From positions 104,078 to 168,077 of the forward strand of contig OZ250161.1 in NCBI GenBank assembly GCA_965237985.1: DNA of 64,000 nt. Reading direction: 5' to 3'. This stretch comes from Candidatus Oxydemutatoraceae bacterium. GTDB lineage: Bacteria; Pseudomonadota; Gammaproteobacteria; Poriferisulfidales; Oxydemutatoraceae. A program made the position numbers and the translations under genes. Below the pieces are notes generated by a model that worked only from the letters and a program-made list of their open reading frames with translations, was not told the DNA's origin and did no database searches. Shown piece by piece: positions 2,852 through 61,213 of the stretch (position 1 is the first letter of the stretch; every line of letters starts with the position of its first letter).

Positions 2852-2865
2852 CAATATTTAGGAAA

Positions 2866-3604: not shown

Positions 3605-3623
3605 TACTTTTTTACTAATTTTT

Positions 3624-20700: not shown

Positions 20701-20904
20701 ATCAAGCGAAAGGAGGTGGTTTTGATCGTGAATACCACGGAAGGGCGACAGGCTGTCGCGGATTCTTTTTCTATTCGCCGCGAAGCCTTGGTGAATGAAA
20801 TCTGCTACTCCACCACTTTGGCGGGAGCTTTTGCACTGGTGAAAGCCCTGCATTGTCAGCCGGAACTGTTGTGCAGCCTGCAGGAGCTGCACAATCTCAA
20901 TTAA
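17686..20904 (+). CDS. carB: Carbamoyl-phosphate synthase large subunit CarB
   Basis: 1072 aa. N-terminus [30 protein letters not shown] and duplicated ATP-grasp halves. Confidence 0.95.
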
Positions 20905-24367: not shown

Positions 24368-24541
24368 TGGGGTTTCAACGGCCCCGGCATCATTTCTTGA
24401 CCCCTCACTGCCTTTGTGCTCTGGTGATGGTTTTGTGTTTCCTCAGTCAATGGGAGAATAGACGGAAACAAAGTGCGACCACACGTTCACTTGTAAATGC
24501 AACATCCAGCAGGTAGCACTGGCATTCGGACATCGGCAGAT

Positions 24542-33696: not shown

Positions 33697-33942
33697 GGCG
33701 ACAGTTTAATGAGTACGACGACGCATTGTAGAAAATAACGGCGGTGCGCAAGGAAGGGTTTTTAGTGGCGTGGTATGCGCAGTGTTCGGTTGTCGTGAAC
33801 GCATAGCACGACTGGTATTTTTCTGTTTTTTATTTTAACCATGGCGACAGTTTAATGAGTACGACGACGCATTGTAGAAAATAACGGCGGTGCGCAAGGA
33901 AGGGTTTTTAGTGGCGTGGTACGCGCAGTGTCCGGTTGTCGT
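33653..33942. repeat. 145-bp unit x2: thiD start codon, first 14 codons and ~100 bp of upstream leader duplicated in tandem
   Basis: AACGCATAGCACGACTGGTATTTTTCTGTTTTTTATTTTAACCATGGCGACAG... occurs at 33653 and 33798. Only two base differences between copies. Confidence 0.85.
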
Positions 33943-34173
33943 GTAGGAGAAGTTGGGAATATCCGGTTTTTGTTTCTGCTGACCTCACTCTGTATCAGGC
34001 ACTCTGTCAAACCAGGGAGCCAAGCAGCCATGCTGCTTCCTGACGAAGACTGCCGCCGGGTAGAATAGCTCGCCTTGCAGTGCAAAGTTTGAAATGAAAC
34101 TGTGTTTTGTAAGAATTGCCTGGCGTAGTTGTCTGTGGCGGAGGCGTTGGTTTTCCTGTTTGGAGTAGTCGAG

Positions 34174-39848: not shown

Positions 39849-40529
39849 TTATTTCGCTTTGTCCGTGGCAGACTGGATCATGACTTTCATTGCGTTTATG
39901 GTTTTCTGGTAATCGGAAGAACCAAAAATTGCTGAACCGGCGACGAAAGTGTCAGCTCCTGCACTTTTGGCGGCGGCAACGTTTTCGGCATTGACTCCCC
40001 CGTCGACCTGTAGGCGGATTTGTCGTCCGCTGGCATCAATGCGGCAGCGTGCCTGTTCCAGTTTCTGGTACGCCAGCGGGAGGAATGTTTGTCCACCAAA
40101 GCCTGGATTGACTGACATCACTAAAATCATGTCTACTTTGTCGAGGACGTAATCCAGGCAGGAAAGTCCGCTCGCCGGGTTGAAAGCCAAGCCGTTTTTA
40201 CAACCACAATTACGGATCAGTTGGAGGCTTCGGTCCACGTGGTCGGTTGCTTCCGGGTGGAAGCTGATGTAATCGGCGCCGGCTTCAGCAAAGGCGGTGA
40301 TTAAACCGTCCACCGGTCGGGTCATGAGATGCACATCGATCGGGGCGTTGATGCCGTAATTCCGCAGGGCGCTGCAGACCATGGGGCCAAAACTCAAGTT
40401 GGGAACATAATGATTGTCCATGACATCAAAATGCACCATGTCGGCACCGGCATCGAGAACAGCAGACACTTCTTCTCCGAGTCGGGCAAAGTCCGCGGCG
40501 AGTATGGAGGGACAGATTTGGTCTTTCAT
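39849..40529 (-). CDS. rpe: Ribulose-phosphate 3-epimerase Rpe
   Basis: [21 protein letters not shown]...[17 protein letters not shown]. 226 aa. Confidence 0.9.
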
Positions 40530-42975
40530 ATGCTGGGTGAGCCATTATCCACCGGTCGGGTCATGAGATGCACATCGATCGGGGCGTTGATGCCGTAATT
40601 CCGCAGGGTGCTGCAGACCATGGTGTCAACACTCAAGTTGGGAACAGAATGGGCACATCGTGTTGGTTCATGACATCAAAATGCACCACGTTTGCGCCGG
40701 CATCGAGAACAGCAGACACTTCTTCTCCGAGTCGGGCAAAGTCTGCGGCGAGTATGGAGGGACAGATTTGCTCTTTCATAAGCCGGGTGAGCCATTATCC
40801 ACGGCTCGGGTCATGAGATGCACATCGATCGGGGCGTTGATGCCGTAATTAAGGGCGCTGCAGACCATGGGGCCACAACTCAAGTTGGGAACATAATGAT
40901 TGTCCATGACATCAAAATGCACCATGTTTGCGCCGGCATCGAGAACAGCAGACACTTCTTCTCCGAGTCGGGCAAAGTCCGCGGCGAGCATGGAGGGGCA
41001 GATTTGCTCTTTCATATGCTGGGTGAGCCATTATCCACGGCTCGGGTCATGGGAGGCACATCTGGTCGGGGAGCTGATGCCGTAATTCCGCAGGGCGCTG
41101 CAGACCATGGGGCCACAACTCAAGTTGGGAACAGAACAGTTGTCCATGACATCAAAATGCATCCTGTCGCGTCGGCGCCGGCATCGAGAACAGCAGACAC
41201 TTCTTCTCCGAGTTGGGCAAAGTCCGCGGCGAGTATGGAGGGACAGATTTGCTCTTTCATATGCTGGGTGAGCCATTATCTACCGGTCGGGTCATGAGAT
41301 GCACATCGATCGGGGCGTTGATGCCGTAATCCCGCAGGGCGCTGCAGACCATGGGCTCAAAACTCAAGTTGGGAACAGAACAGTTGTCCATGACATCAAA
41401 ATGCACCATGTCGGCGCCGGCATCGAGAACAGCAGACACTTCTTCTCCGAGTCGGGCAAAGTCCGCGGCGAGTATGGAGGGACAGATTTGGTCTTTCATA
41501 TGCTGGGTGAGTAATTATCCACGGCTCGGGTCATGGGAGGCACATCTGGTCAGGGAGCTGATGCCGTAATTCCGCAGGGCGCTGCAGACCATGGGGCCAA
41601 AACTCAAGTTGGGAACATAATGATTGTCCATGACATCAAAATGCACCACGTTTGCGCCGGCATCGAGAACAGCAGACACTTCTTCTCCGAGTCGGGCAAA
41701 GTCTGCGGCGAGTATGGAGGGACAGATTTGCTCTTTCATAAGCCGGGTGAGCCATTATCCACGGCTCGGGTCATGAGATGCACATCGATCGGGGCGTTGA
41801 TGCCGTTATTCCATAGGGCTCTGCAGACCATGGGGCCAAAACTCAAGTTGGGAACATAATGATTGTCCATGACATCAAAACACACCATGTTTGCGCCGGC
41901 ATCGAGAACAGCAGACACTTCTTCTCCGAGTCGGGCAAAGTCCGCGGCGAGCATGGAGGGGCAGATTTGCTCTTTCATATGCTGGGTGAGCCATTATCCA
42001 CCGGTCGGGTCATGAGATGCACATCGATCGGGGCGTTGATGCCGTAATCCCGCAGGGCGCTGCAGACCATGGGCCCAAAACTCAAGTTGGGAACAGAACA
42101 GTTGTCCATGACATCAAAATACACCATGTCGGCGCCGGCATCGAGAACAGCAGACACTTCTTCTCCGAGTCGGGCAAAGTCTGCGGCGAGCATGGAGGGA
42201 CAGATTTGCTCTTCCATATGCTGGGTGAGCCATTATCCACGGCTCGGGTCATGGGAGGCACATCGATCGGGGCGTTGATGCCGTTATTCCATAGGGCGCT
42301 GCAGACCATGGGGCCAAAACTCAAGTTGGGAACATAATGATTGTCCATGACATCAAAATGCATCCTGTCGGCGCCGGCGCCGGCATCGAGAACAGCAGAC
42401 ACTTCTTCTCCGAGTCGGGCAAAGTCTGCGGCGAGCATGGAGGGACAGATTTGCTCTTTCATATGCTGGGTGAGCCATTATCCACGGGTCGGGTCATGAG
42501 AGGCACATCGATCGGGGCGTTGATGCCGTTATTCTGCAGGGTGCTGCAGACTGTGTGGGGTCAACACTCGGGTTGGGCGACAGAATGGGTACATCGTGCT
42601 GGTTCATGACATCAAAATGCATCCTGTCGCGTCGGCACCGGCATCGAGAACAGCAGACACTTCTTCTCCGAGTCGGGCAAAGTCCGCGGCGAGTATGGAG
42701 GGACAGATTTGCTCTTTCATATGCCGGGTGATCCATTATCCACGGCTCGGGTCATGGGAGGCACATCTGGTCGGGGCGTTGATGCCGTAATCCCGCAGGG
42801 CGCTGCAGACCATGGGGCCAAAACTCAAGTTGGGGATAGAATGGGTACATTGTGCTGGTTCATGACATCAAAATGCATCCTGTCGCGTCGGCGCCGGCAT
42901 CGAGAACAGCAGACACTTCTTCTCCGAGTCGGGCAAAGTCTGCGGGGGCAGAGAGGGACGGATTTGCTCTTTCAT
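40530..42975 (-). repeat. Tandem array of ten partial copies of the rpe 5' end (about 240 bp each; start codon plus first ~75 codons), head-to-tail directly upstream of intact rpe
   Basis: Minus-strand ATGs at 40779, 41015, 41276, 41499, 41739, 41978, 42217, 42462, 42720 and 42975 each begin MKEQ/DQICPS[IM][19 protein letters not shown]. Most end [13 protein letters not shown] with the TGA overlapping the next ATG. Confidence 0.9.
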
Positions 42976-46222: not shown

Positions 46223-46711
46223 TCAGTCGGCAAGCGTGGAGTCGAGCACCGCCACCGTCATGGCTTCGCGAAATGCGGCTAACTTGCGGTGCAGCGATTC
46301 CGAGTGCGTCGCCAGCAAAGCACAAGCGAACAGGGCGGCGTTTTCCGCCCCTGCCGGACCAATAGCAAAAGTCGCGACCGGTACACCTCTGGGCATCTGC
46401 ACAATCGAGCACAGGGCATCCACTCCCTGCAACTGGCCACCAGTAACGGGCACGCCAAGCACGGGAAGCGGCGTCAGCGAGGCAATCATGCCCGGCAAAT
46501 GTGCCGCGCCGCCGGCACCGGCAATGATACATGTCAAACCGCGTTCTTTTGCGCTTTTTGCATACTCATACATCAGTGTTGGTGTGCGGTGTGCCGACAC
46601 GATTTTCTTCTCGTAGGGAATGGCGAAGCTGTCCAGGCGTTCAGCGGCGTGTCTCATGACTGGCCAGTCATTTTTGCTACCCATGAGGAGTCCGACGACT
46701 GGTTCTTTCAT
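46223..46711 (-). CDS. purE: N5-carboxyaminoimidazole ribonucleotide mutase PurE
   Basis: [14 protein letters not shown]...[14 protein letters not shown]. Confidence 0.9.
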
Positions 46712-47159
46712 GATTTTTCCAGGTTCCGGTTAAATATGCAGGGAATGGTTGCGTTCCGGTTATTCTGCCACATCTTCCGGCTCAGGTTCAGGTACTGGTA
46801 GGGCAGGGTGCCGGTAAGGGTGCAGTGGCAACCAGTTTTTCCGTCCAGATTACGTGTCATTAGAAAACGACCGGATGCTCGCACACGATCGATCGGGGAG
46901 GCATGACGAAGTTCCAGCAGGAAATGCCTGAGCTAAAAAGCAAGCATCTCAAATGGGATAAAACTGGCATGATCAGGTTGCTCAGCACCGACAGAAAATT
47001 TGACACAGAGATTCTGTAGGTTTAAAATACAGGAACTGGCTGGGTTCGTGGGCATTAGTCGGTGTTGTTGTATAGCAGCGGAGGGACTGCTGGCGTGCGA
47101 ATTATTGAACGATGCGGGTGCGAGAAGTGGCTGTGAGTGGTCATTCACTCTTGGGTGCT

Positions 47160-47314
47160 GCTGTGAGAAAAACAGCTGTGGCAAGCTGTCCCGGGTATGG
47201 GGCTGATGGCCCATGTTTCAATCAAAGCCGATAAAGGCTGTTTTTCGGATTGCCGGAGCATGGTGGAGCGTTCCTTGGCCGTGTTATGCATCCATGAGTT
47301 GAAAACTGGAGGTA
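47160..47314 (+). promoter_or_regulatory. Core of the conserved leader shared by all five paralogs (GAGAAAAACAGCTGTG(G/A)CAAGCTGTCC...GGAGGTAATGATGGCG) with SD GGAGG
   Basis: Near-identical copies end at 47314, 51100, 56095, 57129 and 61213. Paralog D retains only this ~155-bp core. Confidence 0.4.
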
Positions 47315-49180
47315 ATGATGGCGAATGAAATTAGTGGTCTGTTTGGGAAGTATGAGAGCACGTATACCACAGTTCAGAGTGGGGGAGCTCGCGAGGAGAT
47401 GAATGCCAAGGGGCAACGAAAGACGTCACGATACGAGTTGCGTGGTTTTGATGCTGATGGTCTCCGAATCAGCAAGCGTGGCGGCAATTTTCTTGACCGT
47501 GTCGTATGTTGGTTTGAAGAGCGTGTTTTTTCGCTTACGAGAAGTGGAACCCGTTCCTCGCTACGGCAAAAATCCAGCAATCAATTTGCTTCTGATGTTG
47601 CCGGAGCACTTCGAGAAATAGACCCGGATCTGGTTGCTGAGGGTAGAGATATCAAGGACCATGATTTGATGAAACAAATAGAATCTGTTCGGGTGCGGGA
47701 TTTGCCACTTCGGTCAGGCTTTGTTCGCGGTATTCTTCAGGAGGTTGCGACCTTGGCGCGGGGAGCAGGGCATGGAGGTGATCTGTCAGAGTTGGCCATA
47801 AAGGCTTTTCCCGTACAGGATGAAGAGCCAGAGCAACCGGCTGCCGCCCTGGAAGTGGCAGCGGATGCCCCAGACAATCGCGAAGACGGAGGGGTGACCC
47901 ACCCGAATCTATCTTTGCCCGATGCACTCAAGGGTGGGCAATATCGGCAGGAAGGTGATGGATATCGTACAGTCAACCCTGGTGACCAGAAAGTGGAAGT
48001 GGATGGGCAAGTCAGACACAACAGAGACAAAGGAATGCCCGGGCGGGCTCAATCTCCGCAAGATGCCCCCTGGGGTGGTGGTGTAAGTTTGGAAGATAGT
48101 CATAGTGATGGAAGCTTGGAAGATGGTTGTAGTATGGGCTTCGATGGTGATTTTTTAGTTGGGAATTCTCGAGCAATGCCGACTGGTCCAGTTGATGGGC
48201 AATTTAGCTTTAAGGATCTGAGTGAAGAAGCATTGCTCAAGGTGCTCCGCACCCCGGTGATGTCTAAAATAGTTATCCCAGAGCTGAATGCTCAGAATTT
48301 TTTTGAGAAGGAAGAGCGCTCTGCAGAGAGTGAAGCGGCAGCTGGAGAAATTGGCCGTTTTGTGACTACCCTAATTGTTGGTGGTTTTGGTCCTGTATAT
48401 GTACAAGAAGTTTTGGATAAACACCTGGATGAGGTGAGACAACTTAATCAGCAACAGGACAAACAGCCTAATGGGAAAGCGGAGCAAGCCAAAGCACTGA
48501 ATAAAGTAGTTGACTCACTCTTAACCATTGATGAGTTTATGATTGACGCGAGGCAGACCGTCCTAGAAGGAGCTAGCCGCTATCATCAGAAGGGAATAAC
48601 TGTCGAGCAGCAGGGGGAGGAAGGAGGTATGCCCGGCGCACACCAATTTTTTGCTACTCAGCAAGTGATGCAGAATTGGCCTTTTCCTTCTAATCCATTT
48701 GCGGAGGAATTTAGCTTTACGGATCTGGGGGATAACGAATTTCTTGCACAACTCGGCGAACACGTGAAGTCTGAAATAGTTGTCCCAGAGCTGCAAAGTC
48801 AGAATTTTTGGAAGGATGGGCATGGGGTAAATGAGAATAAAGCGAAGATCGTTGATGGAATCTCCGGGGCGGTGGCTGGTGAGATTGCTGTCGTTTCTCA
48901 AAGTGTTGAACAGATAAAACAGACTGCGAATGAGGCACTGGGAGTATTAAAACTGTCTGTTAAAACTGATGATACAGACCCGCCGTCTGATGAGCAACTG
49001 CAAGCCAAGGCGCTGAAGAGCGTAGTTCAACGATACCAAGCAGCGGATACTGAAGGCCGTTTGAAGGGGGTCGTCGTGCGGGAACTTGGCCATCATTTGG
49101 CACCACCAGACGGTGTGCGAGGTAAAAAGGAAGTGGGTGTAGTCGACGAAGACCTTCTTCCTGATGCTGGTTCTAGGTGA
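47315..49180 (+). CDS. Paralog A of the unknown repeat-protein family (621 aa); its 3' part degenerates into out-of-frame module fragments up to about 49940, where a truncated IS sits
   Basis: Conserved N-terminus MMANEISGLFGKY...RKTSRYELRGFD...ISKRGGNFLDRVVCWFE. Two F-S-F-x-D-L...PV-x-S-x-I-V-x-PEL modules. Further modules continue in other frames (49177..49437). Confidence 0.65.
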   Translation: MMANEISGLFGKYESTYTTVQSGGAREEMNAKGQRKTSRYELRGFDADGLRISKRGGNFLDRVVCWFEERVFSLTRSGTRSSLRQKSSNQFASDVAGALREIDPDLVAEGRDIKDHDLMKQIESVRVRDLPLRSGFVRGILQEVATLARGAGHGGDLSELAIKAFPVQDEEPEQPAAALEVAADAPDNREDGGVTHPNLSLPDALKGGQYRQEGDGYRTVNPGDQKVEVDGQVRHNRDKGMPGRAQSPQDAPWGGGVSLEDSHSDGSLEDGCSMGFDGDFLVGNSRAMPTGPVDGQFSFKDLSEEALLKVLRTPVMSKIVIPELNAQNFFEKEERSAESEAAAGEIGRFVTTLIVGGFGPVYVQEVLDKHLDEVRQLNQQQDKQPNGKAEQAKALNKVVDSLLTIDEFMIDARQTVLEGASRYHQKGITVEQQGEEGGMPGAHQFFATQQVMQNWPFPSNPFAEEFSFTDLGDNEFLAQLGEHVKSEIVVPELQSQNFWKDGHGVNENKAKIVDGISGAVAGEIAVVSQSVEQIKQTANEALGVLKLSVKTDDTDPPSDEQLQAKALKSVVQRYQAADTEGRLKGVVVRELGHHLAPPDGVRGKKEVGVVDEDLLPDAGSR

Positions 49181-49944
49181 GAAGTCCATCGGCAACTTTG
49201 GCGGATCTGAGCAATGAACGATTGTTTGAGAGACTCAGCGAACCGGTGAAGTCTGAAATGGTTATCCCGAAGCTGAAGGATCGGAATTATTGGGCGGAGG
49301 GTACACGTGATGAGGAAACGCGGGGAAAGATGGTTGATAGCATTGTCGATGAAGTGACTGAAAAGTTTGTTGCTGCTTTGGGAGATTTTCAAGCTCTAAG
49401 AGTTACTGCGAATGAAAAACTGGGATTATTAAATTAAGAATGAATATTGATGAACGAGACCCGCCTTCTGATGTGAAACTCCAAGCCGTGGCACTGGAGA
49501 CCGTCGTAAAAGAAGCTGCTGGCAACGACCAGCTGAACGAGGCCGTAACGATGATAATTAACCATCGTCTTAGGGAACCGGAACAAGACAATCCTGAAGA
49601 GAAAAATTTCGCTATCTAGGCAGCACCACAATACACTACGCCAGGCATGCAGCAAGCTGATGAAGTTCGTGCTACCCACCAAGGACGGAATGATGAGCAA
49701 TTATCTTTTCAAGAAATGTCTGCCAAAGGGTTTTTAAAAAGGCTCAGTGAGCATGTAGAAGTCCATTATGTTACTCCTGCACTTTAGGGGGTTGGTTATG
49801 GTTCGGAAAGGGAACGGATGAAAAAAGTAATGACGGTGAACGCAACTGTCTGGTTTGTCGTGAATATAAAGAATCGTCAGATTGCTGACATCCAGGCGCG
49901 AGCACAGGAAAGCTACAATGCAAAAGCCCGTTTCTACGATGCAA

Positions 49945-50528
49945 TATGAGAATTTCCTCTGGCGAATTCATTCTCACCATGATGAACTCTAAAGTGCTTC
50001 TTATAACCAAAATCTACTAAACCATTATACCCACGCCAGCCATCAGAATGAATAACACTATCTATACTTGTTTTACCTCTAATTATCTTGGTTAAAGTCG
50101 CTGCAGTGCAATCCGGAACAATCTCAGTATAAACTTTATCACCGCGTTTTAATAAACCAAATACTTTGGTTTTACCTTTGGCGCCACGACCACGCACACC
50201 TTTGACTCTTTTTGCCCCAAAGTAAGATTCATCAACTTCAATCTGTCCCACTACAATCTGTCCCACTACAATCTGTCCCACTAATAGGGCAGATTAGTTG
50301 GTTGAATCTCTGGCAACCTGCTTGCGAATTGCCTTTAAATATTGATTAATAGTTTGTCTACTTAACTTTGTTAATTATTGGATTTGAACGGCGTTCAAAT
50401 CCAAAGAAAAATAGCGAATAATTTCTCTAAATTTATGCTCAGGAATTCTTGAACGAATTACATATTTGTTTTTCATTGTCATAACAATACTTATCATGTT
50501 TTTAAACATGCTTAACTTGTCATGACCC
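49945..50528. mobile_element. 5'-truncated second copy of the IS1016-like element (missing ~185 bp of one end) carrying an internal 15-bp x3 repeat
   Basis: Colinear and near-identical to 3048-3604, ending in the same terminal repeat (GCTTAACTTGTCATGACCC). CAATCTGTCCCACTA is present three times at 50239-50283 versus once in copy 1. Confidence 0.75.
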
Positions 50529-51100
50529 CCGGTTAAATATGCAGGGAATGGTTGCGTTCCGGTTATTCTGCCACATCTTCCGGCTCAGGTTCAGGTACTG
50601 GTAGGGTAGGGTGCCGGTAAGGGTGCAGTGGCAACCAGTTTTTCCGTCCAGATTACGTGTCATTAGAAAACGACCGAATGCTCGCACACGATCGATCGGG
50701 GGGGCATGACGAAGTTCCAGCAGGAAATGCCTGAGCTAAAAAGCAAGCATCTCAAATGGGATAAAACTGGCATGCTCAGGTTGCTCAGCACCGACAGAAA
50801 ATTTGACACAGAGATTCTGTAGGTTTAGAATACAGGGACTGGCTGGGTTCGCGGCGGTGGTTCGTGGGCATTAGTCGGTGTTGTTGTATAGCAGCGGAGG
50901 GACTGCTGGCGTGCGAATTATTGAACGATGCGGGTGCGAGAAGTGGCTGTGAGAAAAACAGCTGTGACAAGCTGTCCCGGGTATGGGGCTGATGGCCCAT
51001 GTTTCAATCAAAGCCGATAAAGGCTGTTTTTCGGATTGCCGGAGCATGGTGGAGCGTTCCTTGGCCGTGTTATGCATCCATGAGTTGAAAACTGGAGGTA

Positions 51101-54100
51101 ATGATGGCGAGTAAAATTGGTGGTCTGTTTGGGAAGTATTCGGGCACGTATGCCACAAGTGGTCGGGGTGGTGTGGGGCGCGAGGTGCTGGATGCCAAGG
51201 GGCAACGAAAAACGTCACGATACGAGTTGCGTGGTTTTGATGATAATGTTCCCCGAATCAGCAAGCGTGGCGGCAATTTTCTTGACCGTGTCGTATGTTG
51301 GCTTGAAGACCGTGTTTTTTCGCTTACGAGAAGTGGGAAATCTCCCTCGCTACGGCAAAAATCCAGCTATCAATTTGCTTATGATGTTGGTGAAGCACTT
51401 CTGGAAATAGACCCGAATCTGGGTGCTGAGGGTGGAAATGTCGACACACATGAGCTGGTGCGACGAATAGAATCTGTTCGGGTGCGGGATTTGTCACTTC
51501 GGTCAGGCTTTGTTCGCGATATTCTTCAGGAGGTTGCGACCTTGGCGCGGGAAGCAGATCATGGAGACACGCTGCCAGAGTTGGCCAGAAACGCTTTTCC
51601 CGTACAGAATCCTGTACGGGATGAAGACCCAGAGCAACCGGCTGCCGACCCGGAAGCGGGTGCCCCAGGCAATAATCACGAAGACGAAGAGGCGTTCCAG
51701 CAGGTTCTACCTCCTCCAGATGCACCCGTGGGTAGGGAAAATCGGCAGGAAGGTGGTGAAGATGTAGCCCCCCCTGATAGACCAGTTGAGCTTAATCAAG
51801 AAGTGGCGCCTCAGCTTGTTGCTAGACCAGCTGAGGCGCTATTTAACTTTACGGGTCTGAGTGAAGAAGAATTGTTCGACAAACTCCGCGACCCGGTGAG
51901 GTCTAAAATGGTTAAACCATTGCTGGATCAGCGGAATTTTTGGAAGGATGGGGACTATGAAGAGAAAAACAAGGCAGCTGATGCTATGGTCCATTTGGTG
52001 TCTGCCAAACTTGTTGGGGGTTTTGGTGGTTGTGAAAACGTACAAAAAGTTATGAATAATCACCTGGGTACTTTGAGGAATTTTGATATTCCAGAGGACC
52101 AGCGGACTGATGGGCAACTGCAAACAGAGGCACTGAATATCACAGTTCAGACATTCTCAGAAAATGAGGACGCTCTTGAGAGTACGTATCGGATCGTCGT
52201 AGAGGGAATTGGTAATTATACAGGTAGAAAAGAAGGCGTTTTTCTTGGCGCGGAAAATGTCGAGCAGCAGCCTATTGTTCACCCGGAAATGGGTGTCCCA
52301 GGCAATGGTCGCGGAGACGAAGAGCTGCCCCACCCGGTTCTACCTCCTCCCAATGTATTCGCCGCGCGGGGGGGATATCGGCAGCAGGAAGGTGGTGCAT
52401 ATGTTGCAGTCCAGCGTGATGGACCAGTTGCGCCTCATCAAGAAATGCAGATTCAGCCTGCTGCTGATCCAGTTGAGGAGAAATTTAGCTTTACGAATCT
52501 GAATGATGAACAATTGTTCGACAAACTCAACGACCCGGTGAAGTCTAAAATAGTTAACCCATTGCTGGAAGATCGGGATTTTTGGGAGGGTGGGTACAAT
52601 GAAGAGAAAGGCAAAGTAGTTGATGAGATTGTCCGTTCGGTGTCTGCCCGGCTTGTTGCTGTTTTGGGAAATCATGAACAGGTGAAACTTGATGCGAATG
52701 ACAAACTGGAAGTTTTGACGTTTTATGATGATAAAACTGATAAGCTGACTGATATGCAACTGCAAAGAGGGGCACTGGGTGTCGTAGTTCAAGAACACAT
52801 GGAAAAGGATGCAGAGCAGACGAAGCGGATCGTCATGGCGGGAATTAACCGTTATTTGGGTCAAGGCGTTCCTCTTGGCGTGGAAAATGTCGAGCAGCCG
52901 CCTTTTGCTGGTCCAGTTGAGGCGCCATTTAGCTTTGCGGATCTGGATGATGGACAATTGTTCGACAAATTACGCGCCCCGGTGATGTCTAAAATAGTTA
53001 ACCCATTGCTGGCCGAACAGGGTTTTTTGAAGGGTAGGTACAGTGACGAGGAACAAAAGGTAGTTGATAGGATTGTCCGTCTTGTGTCTATCCGGCTTGT
53101 TACTTCTTTTGGAAATTATAATGAGGTACGAGATGCTGCGAATAAAAACCTGGATACTTTGAGAGAACAAGACCAGGTGGGGCAGACTGATGCGCAACTG
53201 CAAACCTGGGCGCTGGAGCTCGTGGCTGTAGAATACGACGAAGAAAAGGCTGCAGGTCAAGCGATGCAGGTCGTCACACAGGAAATTAGTCGTCATGGCG
53301 CTCATGGGAGGGAGAAAGTGGATATGCACCCCGGCCCCAAGTCTACTGCACCTCCTGAAGATGTGGCGCAGGTTCAGCTTGCTGCTGATTCAGTTAGGGG
53401 GGTATTTAGCTTTATGGGTCTGGAAAATGAAGAATTTTATAGCAGACTCAGCGAACCGGTGAAGTCTAAAATAGTTGCCCCAGAGCTGAGAGAGCAGGAT
53501 TTTTTGCAGGATGGGGCAGATGAGAAGACAGTGGATATCGTTAGGTGGATTTCTAGGACGGTGGCTGGTGAGATTGTTGCCACTTCTGGAGGTATTGGAG
53601 AGGTAAAACAGGCTGCGAATGAAGCACTGGAATTATATAGAGTTGCTGTTGATGAAAATAACCCGCTGTCTGATGAGCAACTGCAATCCAGGGTGCTGGA
53701 GAACGTAGTTGAACAATACCAAGGAAAAGGGGCTGATGTAGTAGGCAGGTTGAAGGAGACCGTCGCGACGGAACTTGTCTATCATTTGAACAAAGCAAAG
53801 AAACCAAGCGCGCCAGTTGAAGAGCAGAAAGAGGTGGCGGCTGATCGGCCGGCAAAACCACAATACGCTATGCCAGGCGTGCAAGCTGAAGGAGTTCATG
53901 CTGCCCAACAAAGAGCTCTTGATGAGCAATTACCTTTTCAACAAATGTCTTCCGAAGGGTTTTTGAAAAGGCTCAGTGAGCAGGTAGAAGCCGAATATGT
54001 GCTTCCTGTACTTGGTGCTATGGAGAGGCAGGATGGTCCGGAAAAGGACAAGATGAAAGAAATAATGACGGTGAACGCAACTGTCTGGTTTGTCGCGAGT

Positions 54101-54532
54101 ATTAAGGGAGGTAAGACTGATATAATCAAGCAGGGAGCACAGGAAAGCTACAATGTAAAAGCCACTTTCTATGGACCTGAAGTTCAGGGGGGCGAGATTC
54201 AAAACGAAGTACTGAAGAATTTGTGTGTTGATGGTTTGACGGGTAGGGAGAAAGAAAAGCTGTATAAGATAGCTGGAGATAACACTTTGATTCAAGCTGG
54301 TCTGGGGAGGGATGATGATGTGTATATTGGAAAGGTCATTTTGGATAGAATAGCGGGCTATTTGGAAGTGGAAGCCCGGCGCCTCCCCGCCCACGGATCA
54401 GCTGTGGAGCACCAGCATGGTAACAACATTATCGACCCTAACAAAGAGGCTGTTGCTGGTTCTCAATCTATCGTGCCTGAGCCTGATGATTTTAGCCAGC
54501 CGGTTGGACCCACCCGTTCCGGTAGGTCGTAA
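51101..54532 (+). CDS. Paralog B, the only apparently intact member (1143 aa): conserved N-domain, four to five ~150-aa modules, distinct C-terminal domain
   Basis: Uninterrupted ORF. Modules begin FNFTGLSEEELFDKLRDPVRSKMVKPLL, FSFTNLNDEQLFDKLNDPVKSKIVNPLL, FSFADLDDGQLFDKLRAPVMSKIVNPLL and FSFMGLENEEFYSRLSEPVKSKIVAPEL. Confidence 0.7.
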   Translation: MMASKIGGLFGKYSGTYATSGRGGVGREVLDAKGQRKTSRYELRGFDDNVPRISKRGGNFLDRVVCWLEDRVFSLTRSGKSPSLRQKSSYQFAYDVGEALLEIDPNLGAEGGNVDTHELVRRIESVRVRDLSLRSGFVRDILQEVATLAREADHGDTLPELARNAFPVQNPVRDEDPEQPAADPEAGAPGNNHEDEEAFQQVLPPPDAPVGRENRQEGGEDVAPPDRPVELNQEVAPQLVARPAEALFNFTGLSEEELFDKLRDPVRSKMVKPLLDQRNFWKDGDYEEKNKAADAMVHLVSAKLVGGFGGCENVQKVMNNHLGTLRNFDIPEDQRTDGQLQTEALNITVQTFSENEDALESTYRIVVEGIGNYTGRKEGVFLGAENVEQQPIVHPEMGVPGNGRGDEELPHPVLPPPNVFAARGGYRQQEGGAYVAVQRDGPVAPHQEMQIQPAADPVEEKFSFTNLNDEQLFDKLNDPVKSKIVNPLLEDRDFWEGGYNEEKGKVVDEIVRSVSARLVAVLGNHEQVKLDANDKLEVLTFYDDKTDKLTDMQLQRGALGVVVQEHMEKDAEQTKRIVMAGINRYLGQGVPLGVENVEQPPFAGPVEAPFSFADLDDGQLFDKLRAPVMSKIVNPLLAEQGFLKGRYSDEEQKVVDRIVRLVSIRLVTSFGNYNEVRDAANKNLDTLREQDQVGQTDAQLQTWALELVAVEYDEEKAAGQAMQVVTQEISRHGAHGREKVDMHPGPKSTAPPEDVAQVQLAADSVRGVFSFMGLENEEFYSRLSEPVKSKIVAPELREQDFLQDGADEKTVDIVRWISRTVAGEIVATSGGIGEVKQAANEALELYRVAVDENNPLSDEQLQSRVLENVVEQYQGKGADVVGRLKETVATELVYHLNKAKKPSAPVEEQKEVAADRPAKPQYAMPGVQAEGVHAAQQRALDEQLPFQQMSSEGFLKRLSEQVEAEYVLPVLGAMERQDGPEKDKMKEIMTVNATVWFVASIKGGKTDIIKQGAQESYNVKATFYGPEVQGGEIQNEVLKNLCVDGLTGREKEKLYKIAGDNTLIQAGLGRDDDVYIGKVILDRIAGYLEVEARRLPAHGSAVEHQHGNNIIDPNKEAVAGSQSIVPEPDDFSQPVGPTRSGRS

Positions 54533-55279
54533 CGTTCATGAGACCGTGCCGGTGCCGCGGAAAATGTTCCTGTTTTCGAGTCAGGACAACATGGAGGAGT
54601 TATTACTGACCAACAGAAGGACCAATGATCGGAGATTTTATGACTGATTTGGGTGGGGGATCCGTCAGAGAATGCCTTCGTGCTGTTGCCATTGAAAAGG
54701 GCGTGGTGGCAGGCTACGCAAACGTAGCTCTGGATATTGATACCCCGGGGTATTAAAGTGAAAGCTACGTTTGATGGGCTCTGCGTCTCAAGAATGCCGG
54801 GTGCAGAATCTCGTTACGTTGATGTTGGAACACATCGCATTGATGTTGGAGACCATTACATTGGTGTTTGACACTTGCACTTAGCAGAGCGATTCATACC
54901 CACAACGATCTTGCAGATGCGAGAAGCCCTGTTGACTGGGGCGGTGCAGCAGAGCGAGAACAAGTCACCGGACGAGCTGTTGAGAGCTTTGGTGTTGAAT
55001 TTTGCACGAGTCTTAAGAGCGGCAGCTTAAGCCATGGTAAATGGGTTTGGCTGACGTTGTCTTGATTTCAAGCTCAGGATCGGCGGCCAGCTTGTCAGTC
55101 AGGTAAGCGTCTGTTGACGGGTTTGAGCATTGTTCCTGCGATAAAATTCGTAAAAACCTCCAGGAATGGTGTGGTCGAACGGTGATTTTAGCCAGCTGTC
55201 GGTTTGCGGTGTATTTATCGGACCACCATCAGAAAATCTGGCGTCAGGCACCCGATGAAACTTTTTCACCCAACACCGG

Positions 55280-55489
55280 TTACTCCGTGTGGAGTATCGT
55301 TCCCCGATTGCTTTCTCCCCGTTCAGACTCTGAACATTGTTTCCGCGGCCTTAGTGTTGGTGTGCGGTGTGCCGACACGATTTTCTTCTCGTAGGGAATG
55401 GCGAAGCTGTCCAGGCGTTCAGCGGCGTGTCTCATGACTGGCCAGTCATTTTTGCTACCCATGAGGAGTCCGACGACTGGTTCTTTCAT
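55280..55489 (-). pseudogene. Duplicated 5' fragment of purE (first 46 codons, then divergence)
   Basis: [46 protein letters not shown] is identical to PurE. Part of a segmental duplication that carries the paralog leader. Confidence 0.7.
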
Positions 55490-56095
55490 GATTTTTCCAG
55501 GTTCCGGTTAAATATGCAGGGAATGGTTGCGTTCCGGTTATTCTGCCACATCTTCCGGCTCAGGTTCAGGTACTGGTAGGGCAGGGTGCCGGTAAGGGTG
55601 CAGTGGCAACCAGTTTTTCCGTCCAGATTACGTGTCATTAGAAAACGACCGGATGCTCGCACACGATCGATCGGGGGGGCATGACGAAGTTCCAGCAGGA
55701 AATGCCTGAGCTAAAAAGCAAGCATCTCAAATGGGATAAAACCGGCATGATCAGGTTGCTCAGCACCGACAGAAAATTTGACACAGAGATTCTGTTGGTT
55801 TAGAATACAGGGACTGGCTGGGTTCGCGTGCGGTGGTTCAGTGGACATTCGTCGGTGTTGTTGTATAGCAGCGGAGGGGCTGTCGGCGTGCGAATCATTG
55901 AACGATGCGGGTGCGAGAAGTGGCTGTGAGTGGTCATTCACTCTTGGGTGCTGCTGTGAGAAAAACAGCTGTGGCAAGCTGTCCCGGGTATGGGGCTGAT
56001 GGCCCATGTTTCAATCAAAGCCGATAAAGGCTGTTTTTCGGATTGCCGGAGCATGGTGGAGCGCATATGCATCCATGAGTTGAAAACTGGAGGTA

Positions 56096-56659
56096 ATGAT
56101 GGCGAATGAAATTAGTGGTCTGTTTGGGAAGTATGAGAGCACGTATACCACAGTTCAGAGTGGGGGAGCTCGCGAGGAGATGGATGCCAAGGGGCAACGA
56201 AAGACGTCACGATACGAGTTGCGTGGTTTTGATGCTGATGGTCTCCGAATCAGCAAGCGTGGCGGCAATTTTCTTGACCGTGTCGTATGTTGGTTTGAAG
56301 ACCGTGTTTTTTCGCTTACGAGAGTGGATGCGACTATCTCTATACGGCAACAATCCAGCAAACAATTTGCTGAAGATGTTTCCGCAGCACTTATAGCAAT
56401 GGACCCGAAACTGAAAGTTGTAGACCCGAATCCGGAAGCTGTGGGCCATAATCTGAAAGAGGGGGAAATAGATCTCAGCAAACATGATTTGATGCAACAA
56501 ATAGAATCTGTTCGGGTGCGGGATTTGCCACTTCGGTCAGGCTTTGTTCTCGGTATTCTTCAGGAGGTTGCGAACTTGGCGCGGATGAATGAAGGTAGTG
56601 TAGGCAATCTGCCAGATTTGGCCAAAAAGGCTTTTCCCGACAATCGAGCCAACCCCTAA
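56096..56659 (+). CDS. Paralog C, truncated (187 aa), followed by out-of-frame module fragments up to about 57000
   Basis: Same conserved N-terminus, then stop. ORF 56748..57140 continues with an FSFTNLNDEQLYGRL module in another frame. Confidence 0.5.
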   Translation: MMANEISGLFGKYESTYTTVQSGGAREEMDAKGQRKTSRYELRGFDADGLRISKRGGNFLDRVVCWFEDRVFSLTRVDATISIRQQSSKQFAEDVSAALIAMDPKLKVVDPNPEAVGHNLKEGEIDLSKHDLMQQIESVRVRDLPLRSGFVLGILQEVANLARMNEGSVGNLPDLAKKAFPDNRANP

Positions 56660-57129
56660 CCGGCTGTCCACCCGGCTCTACCTTTTTCCAATGCATTCGG
56701 GGGTAGGGGAAATCGACAGGAAGGTGGTGAGGATGTAGCCCGCCCTGATGGATCAGCTGAGCCTCATCAAGGAGTGCAGATTCAGCCTGTTGCTGGATCC
56801 AGTTGAGGAGCAATTTAGCTTTACGAATCTGAATGATGAACAATTGTACGGCAGACTCCGCGGCCCGGTGAGGTCTGAAATAGTTAACCCATGTCTGAAC
56901 GAGCAGAATTTTTGGAAGGATGGGGAAGATGAAGGGAAAATGCGGTTCGTTGATGAGATTGTCCATGAGGTGGCTGTGAGAAAAACAGCTGTGGCAAGCT
57001 GTCCCGGGTATGGTCTGATGATCAATGTTTCAATCAAAGCCGACAGATGCTGTTGTTCTGGTTGCCGGAGTATGGTGGAGCGTTCCTTGGCCGCATTATG
57101 CATCCATGAGTTGAAAACTGGAGGCAATT

Positions 57130-58368
57130 ATGGCGAATGATATTGGCGGTCTGTTTAAAAAGTATTCGGGTACGTATTCCACGGCTCAGGGTTCCACGGC
57201 TCAGGGTGATGTGGGTCGCGAGGTGCTGGATGCCAAGGGGCAACGAAAGACGTCTCGGCACGAGTTGCGTGGTTTTGATGCTGGTGTTCCCCGAATCAGC
57301 AAGCGTGGCGGTAATTTTCTTGACCGTGTCGTATGTTGGCTTGAAGACCGTGTTTTTTCGCTTACGAGAAGTGGGAGCCGTCTCTCGCCACGGCAAAAAT
57401 CCAGCAATCAATTTGCTGCTGATGTTGCTGAAGCACTTCGAGAAATAGACCCGGATCTGGTTGCTGAGGGTGGAGGTGGCGAGAAACATGATCTGGTGCG
57501 ACGAATAGAATCTGTTCAGGTGCGGGATTTGCCACTTCGGTCAGGCTTTGTTCGCGGTATTCTTCAGGAGGTTGCGACCTTGGCGCGGAGAGCAGAGCAT
57601 GGAGACAAGCTGCCAGATTTGGCCAAAAACGCTTTTCCCGTACAGGATGGAAGGCTAGGGCAACCGGCTGTCCACCCGGAAGTGGGTGCCCAAGACAATC
57701 GCGAAGCCGAAGAGGTGATCCACCAGAATCTACCTTTGCCCCATGCACTCGGGGGTAGGGGAAATCGGCAGGAAGGTGGTGAAGATGTAGCCCGCCCTGA
57801 TGGATCAGCTGAGCCTCATCAAGGAGTGCAGATTCAGCCTGTTGCTGATCAAGTTGAGGAGCCATTTAGCTTTGCGGATCTGAATGATGAACAACTTTTG
57901 GGCAGACTCAGAGAACCGGTGAAGTCTAAAATGATTATCCCAGTGCTGCGCGAACGGGGTTTATGGGCGGCGGGGGCAGGTGATGAGCAAGAGCGGGAGC
58001 AGATAGCTGATAGGATTGTCGATGATGTGGCTAACGCGGTTGTTGCTGCTGGTAAAGGTGGTCTTGAACAGCTAAAACTTGATGCGGATGGTTCACTGGG
58101 TTTATTGAGAACTGTTGCTTCTTCTGGCCGTGAGGTCGTGGTGACTGATAGGCAACTGCAAAACAGGGCATTGAAAGCCGTAGTTGAACAACACATAGGA
58201 AGACTTTCTGCAGTCCGGTCGGTGGAGATCGTCACGGAGATAATTGACCGTCATCTTAGAGGGCGACCAGACGGTCTTAGCATGGAAAATCACGGGCAAG
58301 AGGTAGTGGATGATGAGTGGCTGGCAGTGCCAGGCGAGCAAGCTAAAGCAGTTCATACTGCCCAATAA
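57130..58368 (+). CDS. Paralog D (412 aa); its C-terminal region is cut by an IS481-family insertion at 58558
   Basis: Conserved N-terminus (MANDIGGLFKKYSGTY...) and two modules. After the stop, in-frame remnants of the family C-terminal domain (MTVNATVCFVVNIK) run into the IS end. Confidence 0.6.
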   Translation: MANDIGGLFKKYSGTYSTAQGSTAQGDVGREVLDAKGQRKTSRHELRGFDAGVPRISKRGGNFLDRVVCWLEDRVFSLTRSGSRLSPRQKSSNQFAADVAEALREIDPDLVAEGGGGEKHDLVRRIESVQVRDLPLRSGFVRGILQEVATLARRAEHGDKLPDLAKNAFPVQDGRLGQPAVHPEVGAQDNREAEEVIHQNLPLPHALGGRGNRQEGGEDVARPDGSAEPHQGVQIQPVADQVEEPFSFADLNDEQLLGRLREPVKSKMIIPVLRERGLWAAGAGDEQEREQIADRIVDDVANAVVAAGKGGLEQLKLDADGSLGLLRTVASSGREVVVTDRQLQNRALKAVVEQHIGRLSAVRSVEIVTEIIDRHLRGRPDGLSMENHGQEVVDDEWLAVPGEQAKAVHTAQ

Positions 58369-58557
58369 AGACAGAATGATGAGTAATTATCTTTTCAAGA
58401 AATGTCTTCCGAAGGGTTTTTGAAAAGGCTCAGTGAGCAGGTAGAAGCCCAATATGTTCTTCCTCATGCTAAGGGGGTTCAGAATGGTCCGGAAAGGGAA
58501 CGGATGAAAAAAATAATGACGGTGAACGCAACTGTCTGTTTTGTCGTGAATATAAAG

Positions 58558-60756
58558 TGTAGAAGTTTAGACCCAATCTGACACATCACTCAATCAAGCT
58601 GAGCGCAGCGAAGCTTGATTGAGTGAGAGTTACCCGTTTAGATGTAATTGCAATATTAACATCCAAACAAAGAGGTAACTCTCATGATCCATACTAACGA
58701 TAAAGTCATTAAATATAAAGTCGGCCTACTCAATCTGGCTGAAGAACTCGGAAACGTCTCAAAAGCCTGCAAGATGATGGGCGTATCCAGAGATACTTTC
58801 TATCGATACAAAGCCGCTGCTGATGAAGGTGGCATTGAAGCACTTTTTGATCAAAACAGGCGTATCGCGAACCTCAAAAATAGAGTTGATCCTGCGATTG
58901 AATCCATCGTCGTTGAACACGCTCTGGAAGAACCTGCCCATGGGCAGACCCGAACCAGCAATGAGCTACGCAAAATGGGGACATATTATTTCGCCGACGG
59001 GCGTACGAAGTATTTGGTTACGCCATAACCTGGCTTGCTTTAAATGTAGAAGTTTAGACCCAATCTGACACATCACTCAATCAAGCTGAGCGCAGCGAAG
59101 CTTGATTGAGTGAGAGTTACCCGTTTAGATGTAATTGCAATATTAACATCCAAACAAAGAGGTAACTCTCATGATCCATACTAACGATAAAGTCATTAAA
59201 TATAAAGTCGGCCTACTCAATCTGGCTGAAGAACTCGGAAACGTCTCAAAAGCCTGCAAGATGATGGGCGTATCCAGAGATACTTTCTATCGATACAAAG
59301 CCGCTGCTGATGAAGGTGGCATTGAAGCACTTTTTGATCAAAACAGGCGTATCGTGAACCTCAAAAATAGAGTTGATCCTGCGATTGAATCCATCGTCGT
59401 TGAACACGCTCTGGAAGAACCTGCCCATGGGCAGACCCGAACCAGCAATGAGCTACGCAAAATGGGGACATATTATTTCGCCGACGGGCGTACGAAGTAT
59501 TTGGTTACGCCATAACCTGGCTTGCTTTAAATGTAGAAGTTTAGACCCAATCTGACACATCACTCAATCAAGCTGAGCGCAGCGAAGCTTGATTGAGTGA
59601 GAGTTACCCGTTTAGATGTAATTGCAATATTAACATCCAAACAAAGAGGTAACTCTCATGATCCATACTAACGATAAAGTCATTAAATATAAAGTCGGCC
59701 TACTCAATCTGGCTGAAGAACTCGGAAACGTCTCAAAAGCCTGCAAGATGATGGGCGTATCCAGAGATACTTTCTATCGATACAAAGCCGCTGCTGATGA
59801 AGGTGGCATTGAAGCACTTTTTGATCAAAACAGGCGTATCGTGAACCTCAAAAATAGAGTTGATCCTGCGATTGAATCCATCGTCGTTGAACACGCTCTG
59901 GAAGAACCTGCCCATGGGCAGACCCGAACCAGCAATGAGCTACGCAAAATGGGGACATATTATTTCGCCGACGGGCGTACGAAGTATTTGGTTACGCCAT
60001 AACCTGGCTTGCCTTAAAGATCGACTCAAAGCACTATCCGATAAAGTGGCCACTGAAGGCCTGATTCTTACTGAACCTCAAGTCGCTGCCATGGAACGCA
60101 AACAAGATGACGATCAGGCCTGTGGTGAGATAGAAACAGCCCACCCTGGCTATTTGGGCTCGCAAGACACTTACTATGTGGGTATATTCAAGGATATTGA
60201 CCGAGTCTATCAGCAGACGTTTGTTGATACTTACAGTAAAGTCGCTCACGCCAAGCTCTACACCACCAAAACGCCGATTACCGCCGCTGATATGCTCAAT
60301 GATCGTGTGTTGCCGTTCTATGAGGAACAAGCACTTCCCATGCTGCGGATTCTCACCGACCGTGGTACAGAATATTGTGGTCGAGCTGACCAACATGATT
60401 ACCAGCTCTACCTGGCTTTGAATGATATTGAGCACACCAAAACCAAAGTCAGGTCACCGCAAACCAATGGCATTTGTGAACGCTTCCACAAGACCCTTCT
60501 CAATGAGTTTTACCAAGTGACCTTGCGTAAGAAAATCTATCAATCGATAGAAGAATTACAAATTGATCTTGACAAATGGCTCATCAAATACAATACTCAA
60601 CGAACTCACCAAGGCAAAATGTGCTGTGGGAGAACGCCGATGGAAACTCTCATCGACGGCAAATCAATCTGGAAGGAAAAGTCTTTGAACTAAACTTAAC
60701 CTGACAGTCGGTTGCTGATAAACGGGTAACTGTCAGATCAAGTCTGAATTTCTACA
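58558..60756 (+). mobile_element. IS481-family insertion sequence whose left end (terminal repeat, leader and first 114 codons) is tandemly triplicated (3 x 487 bp)
   Basis: Terminal repeats TGTAGAAGTTTAGACCCAATCTGACA at 58558 and TGTCAGATCAAGTCTGAATTTCTACA ending at 60756. Unit starts at 58558, 59045 and 59532. rve-type DDE ORF at 59860..60693. Confidence 0.8.
59658..60693 (+). pseudogene. IS481-family transposase (HTH plus rve DDE domain) with a +1 frameshift near 59960 relative to the inverted copy
   Basis: ORF A ends ...ELRKMGTYYFADGRTKYLVTP-stop while ORF B continues HIISPTGVRSIWLRHNL. The copy at 63.3 kb reads ELRKMGTFVSPTGVRSIW in one frame. The difference is GACATATTATTTCGCC versus GACATTTGTTTCGCC. 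Confidence 0.7.
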
Positions 60757-61213
60757 CATTAGAAAACGACCGGATGCTCGCACACGATCGATCGGGGGGG
60801 CATGACGAAGTTCCAGCAGGAAATGCCTGAGCTAAAAAGCAAGCATCTCAAATGGGATAAAACTGGCATGATCAGGTTGCTCAGCACCGACAGAAAATTT
60901 GACACAGAGATTCTGTAGGTTTAAAATACAGGAACTGGCTGGGTTCGTGGATATTCGTCGGTGTTGTTGTATAGTAGCGGAGGGGCTGCTGGCGTGCGAA
61001 TTATTGAACGATGCGGGTGCGAGAAGTGGCTGTGAGTGGTCATTCACTCTTGGGTGCTGCTGTGAGAAAAACAGCTGTGACAAGCTGTCCCGGGTATGGG
61101 GCTGATGGCCCATGTTTCAATCAAAGCAGATAAAGGCTGTTTTTCGGATTGCCGGAGCATGATGGAGCGTTCCTTGGTCGTGTTATGCATCCATGAATTG
61201 AAAACTGGAGGTA

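Follow-up and report, generated by a model that had tools for sequence, protein, structure and literature searches.

ORF B, the largest intact member of a lineage-restricted tandem family of modular repeat proteins in sponge-associated Gammaproteobacteria

We analysed a 64-kb stretch of DNA (64,000 nucleotides, the window, to which all positions refer) from a Candidatus (Ca.) Oxydemutatoraceae bacterium, in which one open reading frame (ORF), ORF B or B, encodes a large protein built from repeated modules and surrounded by related copies. The locus raises the question of what such a protein is, and why the number and sequence of its modules change from one neighbouring copy to the next. We found B to be the largest intact member of a tandem gene family restricted to a lineage of sponge-associated, sulfur-oxidising Gammaproteobacteria. 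We give about even weight to the reading that B is a partner-binding protein, variable and probably exported, whose diversity comes from recombination and positive selection; its export, location and partner are what we infer.

Architecture of ORF B and its family

The position that the first-pass annotation gave for ORF B (51101-54532) was recovered exactly, as was every peptide quoted from it; the ORF is on the + strand and encodes 1143 aa, and a GGAGG Shine-Dalgarno sequence lies immediately 5′ of the ATG. The hydropathy of B peaks at 1.04 (maximum of the Kyte-Doolittle 19-residue average), and direct reading of its first 25 residues found them rich in Ser, Thr, Gly and Lys with zero acidic residues, which is only a lead toward a secretion signal. 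Whole-protein self-blastp of B returned the diagonal alone, and modules were therefore compared segment against segment. In agreement with the internal repeats first noticed, they share 30-50 % identity along 106-162 aa, at E values of 5e-41 (modules 1 and 2), 1e-35 (modules 2 and 3), 2e-26, 3e-25, 2e-17 and 3e-15, far above chance. The F-x-F motifs lie at aa 248, 462, 610 and 769, so that the four module starts placed earlier at about 246, 459, 607 and 770 stand with small shifts, and the ..D.QLQ..AL.. blocks lie at aa 336, 549, 696 and 857. A hidden Markov model (HMM) of the module, which is ~140 aa long, delimits domains at aa 241-395, 455-601, 603-748 and 762-915. Linker sequence is repeated as well, aa 178-235 recurring at aa 389-449 (blastp E 4e-9).

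The C-terminal ~250 aa had been described as unrelated to the modules, a claim that we overturn: the tail matches module 4 at aa 944-1042 (E 1e-5) and aligns over the whole of aa 942-1136 with the final module of two homologues, P0004 and P0002 (E 1.4e-6). B thus has five modules, four canonical and one divergent and of terminal type. Assignment of this tail to the second, type-2 module of relatives was rejected in favour of a divergent type-1 terminal module, the type-2 HMM reaching only E 0.11 over 30 residues. Fragments of the tail do occur where they had been reported, with 'MTVNATVWFV..' at 49830, following paralog A, and at 58519, following the paralog at 57130-58368, and 'VKATFDG' at 54758.

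B begins with a constant N-terminal domain (N-domain) that defines the family, matching the N-domain HMM at E 2e-104 and carrying the motifs LF.KYS.TY, ELRGF, SKRGGNFLDRVVCW.E.RVFSLT and RDLPLRSGFV..IL.EVA. This domain is present five times in the window, starting at 47315, 51101, 56096, 57130 and 61214 (paralogs A, B, D, E and F), with 64-80 % identity among these copies and 52-60 % identity to those of Porisulfidus and Oxydemutatoraceae. Besides the five window copies the family has at least 10 members in relatives, with 0-6 modules per gene, and both the module HMM and module comparison bear out that module number and sequence vary between paralogs.

In relatives the N-domain heads many genes in the chromosomes OZ244118.1 ('uncultured Ca. 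Porisulfidus') and OZ243039.1 (Ca. Oxydemutatoraceae), both metagenome-assembled genomes (MAGs), as well as in related metagenome contigs. These relatives are sponge symbionts of Chromatiales type; both Ca. Porisulfidus and Ca. Oxydemutatoraceae have been described as symbionts of sponges, and their assemblies come from PacBio HiFi metagenomes, making it unlikely that the frameshifts and repeats are sequencing artefacts. The array adjoins purE, downstream of trpE-rpe-ADH-purK, with its genes head to tail in the window, in both Porisulfidus strains (contigs L001/L005 and L002) and in the Oxydemutatoraceae MAG (L004); a 14-kb contig (L003) carries family genes without flanking housekeeping genes. 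The usual order in relatives is N-domain, linker, the type-2 module (F.DLT..EFTEKLC..), 0-6 modules of the type found in B, the motif DDFSQPVG and then a conserved C-terminal domain of ~110 aa, which we identified in P0002-4, P0007 and P0015-19. The two module types may be distantly related, to judge from a sequence profile alignment limited to the first 55 columns (hhalign E 4e-4). In P0021, P0022 and P0024 (including L001 8054-9199 and L004 10001-11158) a third kind of middle region (NLSSMNNGMFFGRLSDHVEEIV...) replaces the type-2 module, and these proteins are without the C-terminal domain. The family therefore holds more architectural variants than those analysed here.

Protein searches covered a combined ~15 billion proteins. 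Three word-indexed searches (5.8 billion clusters) returned 4, 3 and 14 family proteins, and the module profile, run exhaustively with HMMER against 1.84 billion representatives, found 11. All of these matches are confined to five contigs, those named to organism being Ca. Porisulfidus and Ca. Oxydemutatoraceae MAGs, and the matched proteins carry neither a name nor a Pfam domain. Homologous modules, which the first-pass annotation had proposed to look for elsewhere, thus exist on a few contigs of this type. A scan of JGI metagenomes and IMG/VR with the N-domain returned no relative. Whole proteins, all 23 module sequences and the profiles had no match in Pfam, NCBIfam, PADLOC, PHROGs or the PDB sequences: the best whole-protein match in Pfam-A/NCBIfam was DUF4853 at 15.4 bits against a cut-off of 34.8, with no family recurring among the 23 modules; PDB sequences gave E ≥ 0.058 (phmmer and profile); and PADLOC and PHROGs gave best E values of 0.026-0.08 over zero or one matched stretch. 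The modules do not, by the blank results from Pfam, NCBIfam, PADLOC and PHROGs, belong to a well-known repeat family of annotated function. No description of the family was found in the literature, and we regard it, on the strength of these searches, as a previously undescribed, lineage-restricted orphan gene family.

The helical fold that had been anticipated for the module was supported by AlphaFold2, which modelled module 2 as four helices (residues 15-37, 47-68, 71-92 and 97-133) with a predicted local distance difference test (pLDDT) score of 83.6 and a predicted template modelling (pTM) score of 0.75. The N-domain was modelled as a mixed alpha/beta fold (pLDDT 77.9, pTM 0.77). Foldseek searches of the PDB gave best E values of 0.55 for the module and 0.89 for the N-domain with template modelling (TM) scores < 0.3, and across the PDB (both models) and BFVD (module) no match was found, best E values being 0.39-0.89 and TM ≤ 0.38. 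Both predicted folds are apparently new. The conserved columns of the module are mostly hydrophobic core positions together with QLQ..AL, the fixed elements being the hydrophobic core and the motifs F-x-F, P-x-L and QLQ..AL. With no curated family, PDB sequence, PDB fold or viral fold matching B, its initial description as a modular repeat protein without a sequence-assignable function stands.

Selection, recombination and transcription within the array

Nonsynonymous divergence (dN) exceeds synonymous divergence (dS) in every comparison of window modules tested, with dN/dS (ω) of 1.7-2.5 by NG86, 2.1-2.6 by LWL85 and 3.3-5.4 by YN00, changes at codon positions 1 and 2 exceeding those at position 3, and Fisher p = 0.0005-0.035 per module pair from Nei-Gojobori counts. 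Within the intact ORF the pairs B1-B2 and B3-B4 give ω of 2.2-2.3, and the housekeeping controls purK, ADH and purE, compared between the window and Porisulfidus in the same pipeline, give ω of ~0.2. Neutral simulations started from the real module sequences under three substitution spectra had median ω of 0.6-0.96, 99th percentiles of 1.05-1.81 and P(ω ≥ 2.19) ≤ 0.001, so that pseudogene drift cannot explain the observed values. In 11 of 12 sliding windows along the modules the proportion of nonsynonymous differences (pN) exceeds that of synonymous differences (pS), pS falling to 0.05-0.07 in the motif blocks of the modules against 0.25-0.5 elsewhere; for motif blocks in general pS is 0.00-0.07. 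The N-domain is under purifying selection between genera (ω 0.32, window versus Porisulfidus). Two co-occurring Porisulfidus strains show ω of 1.05 and 3.0 in family genes with dN ~10 times that of flanking genes, the value of 3.0 belonging to a 906-aa gene (p 0.03). Around a fixed core the module surfaces change faster than neutral drift, and the remaining positions faster than synonymous sites, a pattern that suggests contact with a co-evolving partner such as the host. Mutagenesis by a diversity-generating retroelement was considered and rejected: the spectrum is not aimed at adenine, which takes part in only 63 % of the mismatches between modules, each of the six types of mismatch is common, and the variation spans whole proteins. 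No reverse transcriptase was found among the window ORFs scanned.

The coding DNA of the family is a mosaic. Two blocks of the N-domain, SKRGGNFLDRVVCW..FSLT and RDLPLRSGFV..ILQEVA, are 95-100 % identical in DNA, at synonymous sites too, and the patches between them 62-88 %. Modules cluster by lineage and into subtypes that cut across paralogs, module 4 of B grouping with module 2 of A and module 1 of F (B4~A2~F1), and modules 1-3 of B representing a recent internal expansion. Module DNA diverges by 27-37 % with longest exact matches of 21-64 nt, the 64-nt match linking E and D. Between the two Porisulfidus strains housekeeping DNA has 0-3 mismatches per 300 nt, against 13-25 per 300 nt in clustered tracts, plus module-scale indels, in their large family proteins. 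Module number changes by indels of this scale. The tracts and indels point to unequal recombination and gene conversion among the repeats, for which the constant blocks serve as anchors, and to selection in favour of amino-acid change.

Upstream of the coding DNA lies a promoter and leader of ~450 bp that is 96.6-98.6 % identical between paralogs A, B, D and F, the coding DNA after it differing by 15-37 %. It contains a near-consensus sigma70-type promoter (TTGACA-17-TAGAAT, 50803-50831, 11 of 12 matches) followed by a ~270-nt leader, the final 120 nt of which fold into a structure kept across three genomes. The structure common to the Porisulfidus and Oxydemutatoraceae copies has 23 predicted pairs, seven of them with compensatory changes, and ~70 nt before the ATG there is a small hairpin with a U-run after it. 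No Rfam family matches the leader, which may, judging by these features, be an attenuator or other cis-regulatory RNA. With its own promoter and leader each paralog is an independent transcription unit, probably co-regulated with the others.

This arrangement bears on whether the array could be a cassette system for antigenic variation, in which B would be expressed and the truncated paralogs would act mainly as gene-conversion donors, as in pilS/pilE and vls/vlsE. Constant blocks interleaved with hypervariable patches are indeed what such systems show, and the partial copies kept beside B, the mosaic kinship of the modules, the 64-nt exact match between E and D and the clustering of strain differences in tracts would all fit. 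However, each partial copy retains a promoter, a Shine-Dalgarno sequence, a start codon and an N-domain of its own, and none is therefore a silent cassette. In place of one expression site with promoterless cassettes, paralogs A, B, D and F have the full promoter and leader, and all five window copies, E included, keep the start codon and N-domain. Modules as diverged as these, with exact matches so short, would moreover be a poor substrate for frequent conversion, and no recombination-promoting element was identified. We consider a cassette system very unlikely. A Neisseriaceae origin of the DNA, which the IS1595 fragment in the array had suggested, was rejected, DNA uptake sequences being absent and the relatives being of Chromatiales type.

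Table 1 Features of ORF B, its paralogs and the elements adjoining them in the window
Feature	Position	Strand	Description
Conserved non-coding promoter/leader of B	50661-51100	+	Copies at 46860-47314 (A), 55636-56095 (D) and 60757-61213 (F)
ORF B	51101-54532	+	1143 aa; acidic, pI 4.8; no signal-like or transmembrane hydrophobic stretch
Constant N-terminal domain	51101-51625	+	Family-defining; ~175 aa, pI 8.8
Acidic Pro/Gln-rich linker before module 1	51626-51820	+	aa 176-240; Pro 15-18 %, pI 4-5
Module 1	51821-52285	+	HMM domain E 1.5e-72
Similar linker between modules 1 and 2	52286-52462	+	aa 396-454; acidic, Pro/Gln-rich
Module 2	52463-52903	+	Copy used for the structure model
Module 3	52907-53344	+	Abuts module 2 directly; found by module HMM
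Module 4	53384-53845	+	Same subtype as A2 (module 2 of A) and F1 (module 1 of F), to which it is 43-45 % identical
Module 5, divergent, terminal-type	53930-54355	+	aa 944 to ~1085; aligns with the last module of P0004/P0002 and with module 4
PDDFSQPVG motif	54482-54508	+	Family motif at the end of the B tail alignment; B stop 8 codons later
Paralog A	47315-49940	+	ORF to 49180 with an intact N-domain and 2 modules; beyond it a third, frameshifted module and fragments of the tail
IS1595 fragment cutting paralog A	49934-50281	-	
Paralog D	56096-56990	+	N-domain only (ORF to 56659), then out-of-frame module fragment
Paralog E	57130-58572	+	N-domain and 1 module (ORF to 58368); tail-module fragment past two stop codons
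Paralog F	61214-62576	+	N-domain and 1 module (ORF to 62236), then out-of-frame module fragment
Inverted 1.2-kb IS3-family copies flanking paralog F	59524-60759 and 62575-63810		

Within the array a 300-bp piece comprising the purE 5′ end and upstream DNA is duplicated at 100 % identity (46575-46874 and 55353-55652), and an ORF for an N-terminal PurE fragment lies at 55280-55489 (-); the identical duplicate indicates that the array grew by segmental duplication carrying flanking DNA along. Three tandem copies of a 487-bp unit (99 % identical) occupy 58553-60018, at the end of an IS3-family element with an rve-domain ORF (59860-60693). The second 1.2-kb IS3-family copy, beyond paralog F, is inverted and 98 % identical, in a layout that resembles a composite transposon.

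Other long tandem repeats lie outside the array. These include ~9 copies of a 246-bp unit (95 % matches) at 14573-16788 that contains a ribosome-binding site and the first carA codons, directly upstream of an intact carA-carB (16569-20904), an unusual amplification of a gene 5′ end; and ~11 copies of a 239-bp unit (88 % matches) at 40309-42975, starting inside the rpe 5′ end (39849-40529, -) and filling the 3.3-kb gap before the ADH gene, the equivalent space in Porisulfidus (L001) being only ~660 nt. An orphan ORF of 623 aa without a Pfam match (21759-23630, -) carries three 111-bp tandem repeats (97 % identical) at 22868-23213, a 231-bp unit is present three times at 24541-25240, next to and overlapping the mutS 3′ end, and a 146-bp unit twice at 33652-33943. 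From its sequence the genome seems prone to long-unit tandem duplication. At 1778-6424 a gene for a Fic/DOC-HTH protein (1778-2851) stands beside a pair of tyrosine integrase genes, of which one (3624-5525, -) is fused to NikA-like and HicB-like regions, and a tRNA-Ser gene is found nearby at 1094-1185; the tRNA gene and integrases make this probably an integrated mobile element.

Weighing the possible roles of B

What could a constant domain followed by fast-changing helical modules be for? With confidence divided about equally for and against, we propose that the modules are variable binding or decoy surfaces facing a co-evolving partner, most plausibly the sponge host, and that the protein is exported by a non-Sec route, its N-domain serving as a common handle. 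The modules would present these surfaces to the partner, most likely the host and possibly a phage, and the N-domain would act as a shared handle for export, anchoring or activity; as B has no Sec signal, its export would need a non-Sec route. Variation would arise through unequal recombination and gene conversion among modules and paralogs, anchored on the constant DNA blocks, and the resulting changes would be fixed by positive selection.

A number of observations weigh against this proposal. B has no signal peptide and the window contains no secretion-system gene. Confidence in the N-domain model is moderate and uneven, the five models ranging from 42 to 78. The ω estimates are pairwise and mutually non-independent, and the modules inside Porisulfidus P0002 have ω of 0.6-1.6 with zero significant pairs, so that ω > 1 is proven only in the window lineage and in the 906-aa gene compared between strains. 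Of the five paralogs in the window, four (A, D, E and F) have each acquired several nonsense or frameshift lesions. The type-2 module was not found in B by HMM, and no significant copy of the C-terminal domain occurs anywhere in the window (HMM E ≥ 10), B included; without these two parts the window copies may be losing function. A possible out-of-frame remnant of the C-terminal domain at 54610-54747, downstream of B, is weak (tblastn E 0.01 alone, profile E 28), and its survival there is unproven.

The lesions and the missing C-terminal domain would also be expected of a decaying remnant, an array of a once functional family now under relaxed selection, in which B has simply not yet been hit by a stop and its high dN/dS reflects relaxation and noise. 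Insertion sequence (IS) elements have entered the array, ω of the N-domain among window paralogs is near neutral at 0.9-1.7, and the GC content of the array (0.47-0.50) lies below that of the flanking genome (0.53-0.55). The array is indeed partly degraded in this genome, B being its largest intact member. Relaxation does not however account for ω values beyond the neutral simulations, which recur between modules inside the intact ORF, nor for module core residues that stay invariant, and an open frame of 1143 codons would not outlast neutral divergence of 27-37 %. The promoter and leader have been held nearly identical, and both the intact frame and the strong Shine-Dalgarno sequence speak for maintenance of B itself. 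We therefore think the remnant reading unlikely. Phase variation at the frame breaks was rejected, there being no repeat tracts at these sites and several lesions per copy.

The absence of a signal peptide or transmembrane segment from B would also fit an intracellular structural or scaffold protein, like spectrin or phasin, in which flexible linkers join helical bundles into a rod, located for example on sulfur globules or another inclusion and not exported. The all-helical modular build with linkers and the housekeeping chromosomal neighbourhood are in keeping with this. Set against it, a housekeeping scaffold would not usually show dN/dS > 1, module indels between strains or so many paralogs in one genome, the Foldseek search brought up no similarity to bundle proteins such as spectrin, talin or phasin, and the family is absent from all other sulfur oxidisers among the ~15 billion proteins searched. 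A scaffold role is on this evidence quite unlikely.

Diversifying selection is also typical of phage-host conflict, and the IS elements in the array and an integrase elsewhere in the window could be taken to hint at a phage-related or anti-phage function, with B as a decoy, a receptor-masking protein or a defence component. We hold this to be extremely improbable: there are zero matches in PADLOC and PHROGs, no relatives in IMG/VR or BFVD and no adjacent phage genes, and the chromosomal site is fixed and syntenic in three species.

Returning to the partner-binding proposal, a bolder form of it, possible but doubtful in our estimate, is that the family represents a new class of symbiosis protein, hypervariable and exported by a non-Sec route, with an unseen four-helix module and a new N-terminal handle, diversified by recombination on anchor blocks and by positive selection. 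It would then be a functional analogue of the var/VSG/Vls or TALE-like systems that manages recognition by an early-branching animal host. How sponge hosts recognise and tolerate their symbionts is poorly understood, and the usual candidates are 'eukaryotic-like' proteins with ankyrin, TPR or LRR repeats. To these the locus adds a candidate of another kind: an orphan family, its two folds apparently new, that is confined to a small genome group, sits at a fixed site and has a shared promoter and leader. Its dN/dS of ~2, combined with recombination at the scale of modules between strains that occur together, is among the clearest signs of molecular conflict. It supplies specific proteins and a constant domain for tests of export and host binding, as well as a compact natural case of repeat-protein diversification. 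The tandem N-domain family in a few genomes, the module dN/dS > 1, the four decayed copies and the C-terminal domain missing from B all go beyond the first-pass annotation.

Comparison with known systems

The family shares features with a number of described repeat and multigene systems. With the eukaryotic-like repeat proteins of sponge symbionts (ankyrin, TPR, LRR and Sel1) it has in common the ecological setting, a repeat architecture and a presumed host interaction; unlike them it has no such Pfam match, a module ~4 times longer and no homologue outside this clade. Spectrin, talin and vinculin rods likewise consist of tandem helical bundle units of ~110-150 aa. They differ in that the module has no Foldseek match to them (best E 0.55, TM < 0.3), its bundles are separated by disordered linkers and its evolution is extremely fast. 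Polymorphic toxins of the Rhs, CDI or MafB type were rejected, as no toxin or immunity family was detected in Pfam, NCBIfam or PADLOC, the space between paralogs is filled by the promoter and leader and not by small ORFs, and the C-terminal domain is the conserved part in relatives.

Transcription activator-like (TAL) effectors of Xanthomonas and Ralstonia and the BAT proteins of Mycetohabitans bind DNA through 33-35-aa repeats with two hypervariable residues. Like them, the family combines a constant N-terminal region, a variable count of tandem helical repeats and, in the relatives of B, a constant C-terminal region, in several paralogs per genome that often lie near IS elements and change repeat number by recombination in host-associated bacteria. 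The units here are four-helix modules of 135-150 aa between Pro/Gln linkers and vary over their whole surface, without a sequence or fold match or a Pfam TAL match; a type III secretion system, nuclear localisation signal and activation domain are known from the TAL side. The Salmonella 'STE' effectors are paralogs with a common conserved N-terminal translocation domain. Many paralogs, a single conserved N-terminal domain of ~140-175 aa, a differing remainder and the lack of a Sec signal recall this arrangement, without sequence similarity and with no secretion system seen in the window.

Borrelia VlsE, Neisseria pilE/pilS, Plasmodium PfEMP1 and trypanosome variant surface glycoprotein (VSG) share with the family a conserved framework with variable surface patches, DNA blocks that stay constant amid hypervariable segments, multigene arrays that include pseudogenes, and an excess of dN over dS. 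The proteins here differ in being bacterial ones without signal peptide or lipobox and without a single expression site. Without belonging to any of these groups, the family stands closest, by analogy, in architecture to TALE-like repeat effectors and to effector families with a common N-terminal translocation domain, and closest in evolutionary pattern to variant-antigen families built on helical scaffolds.

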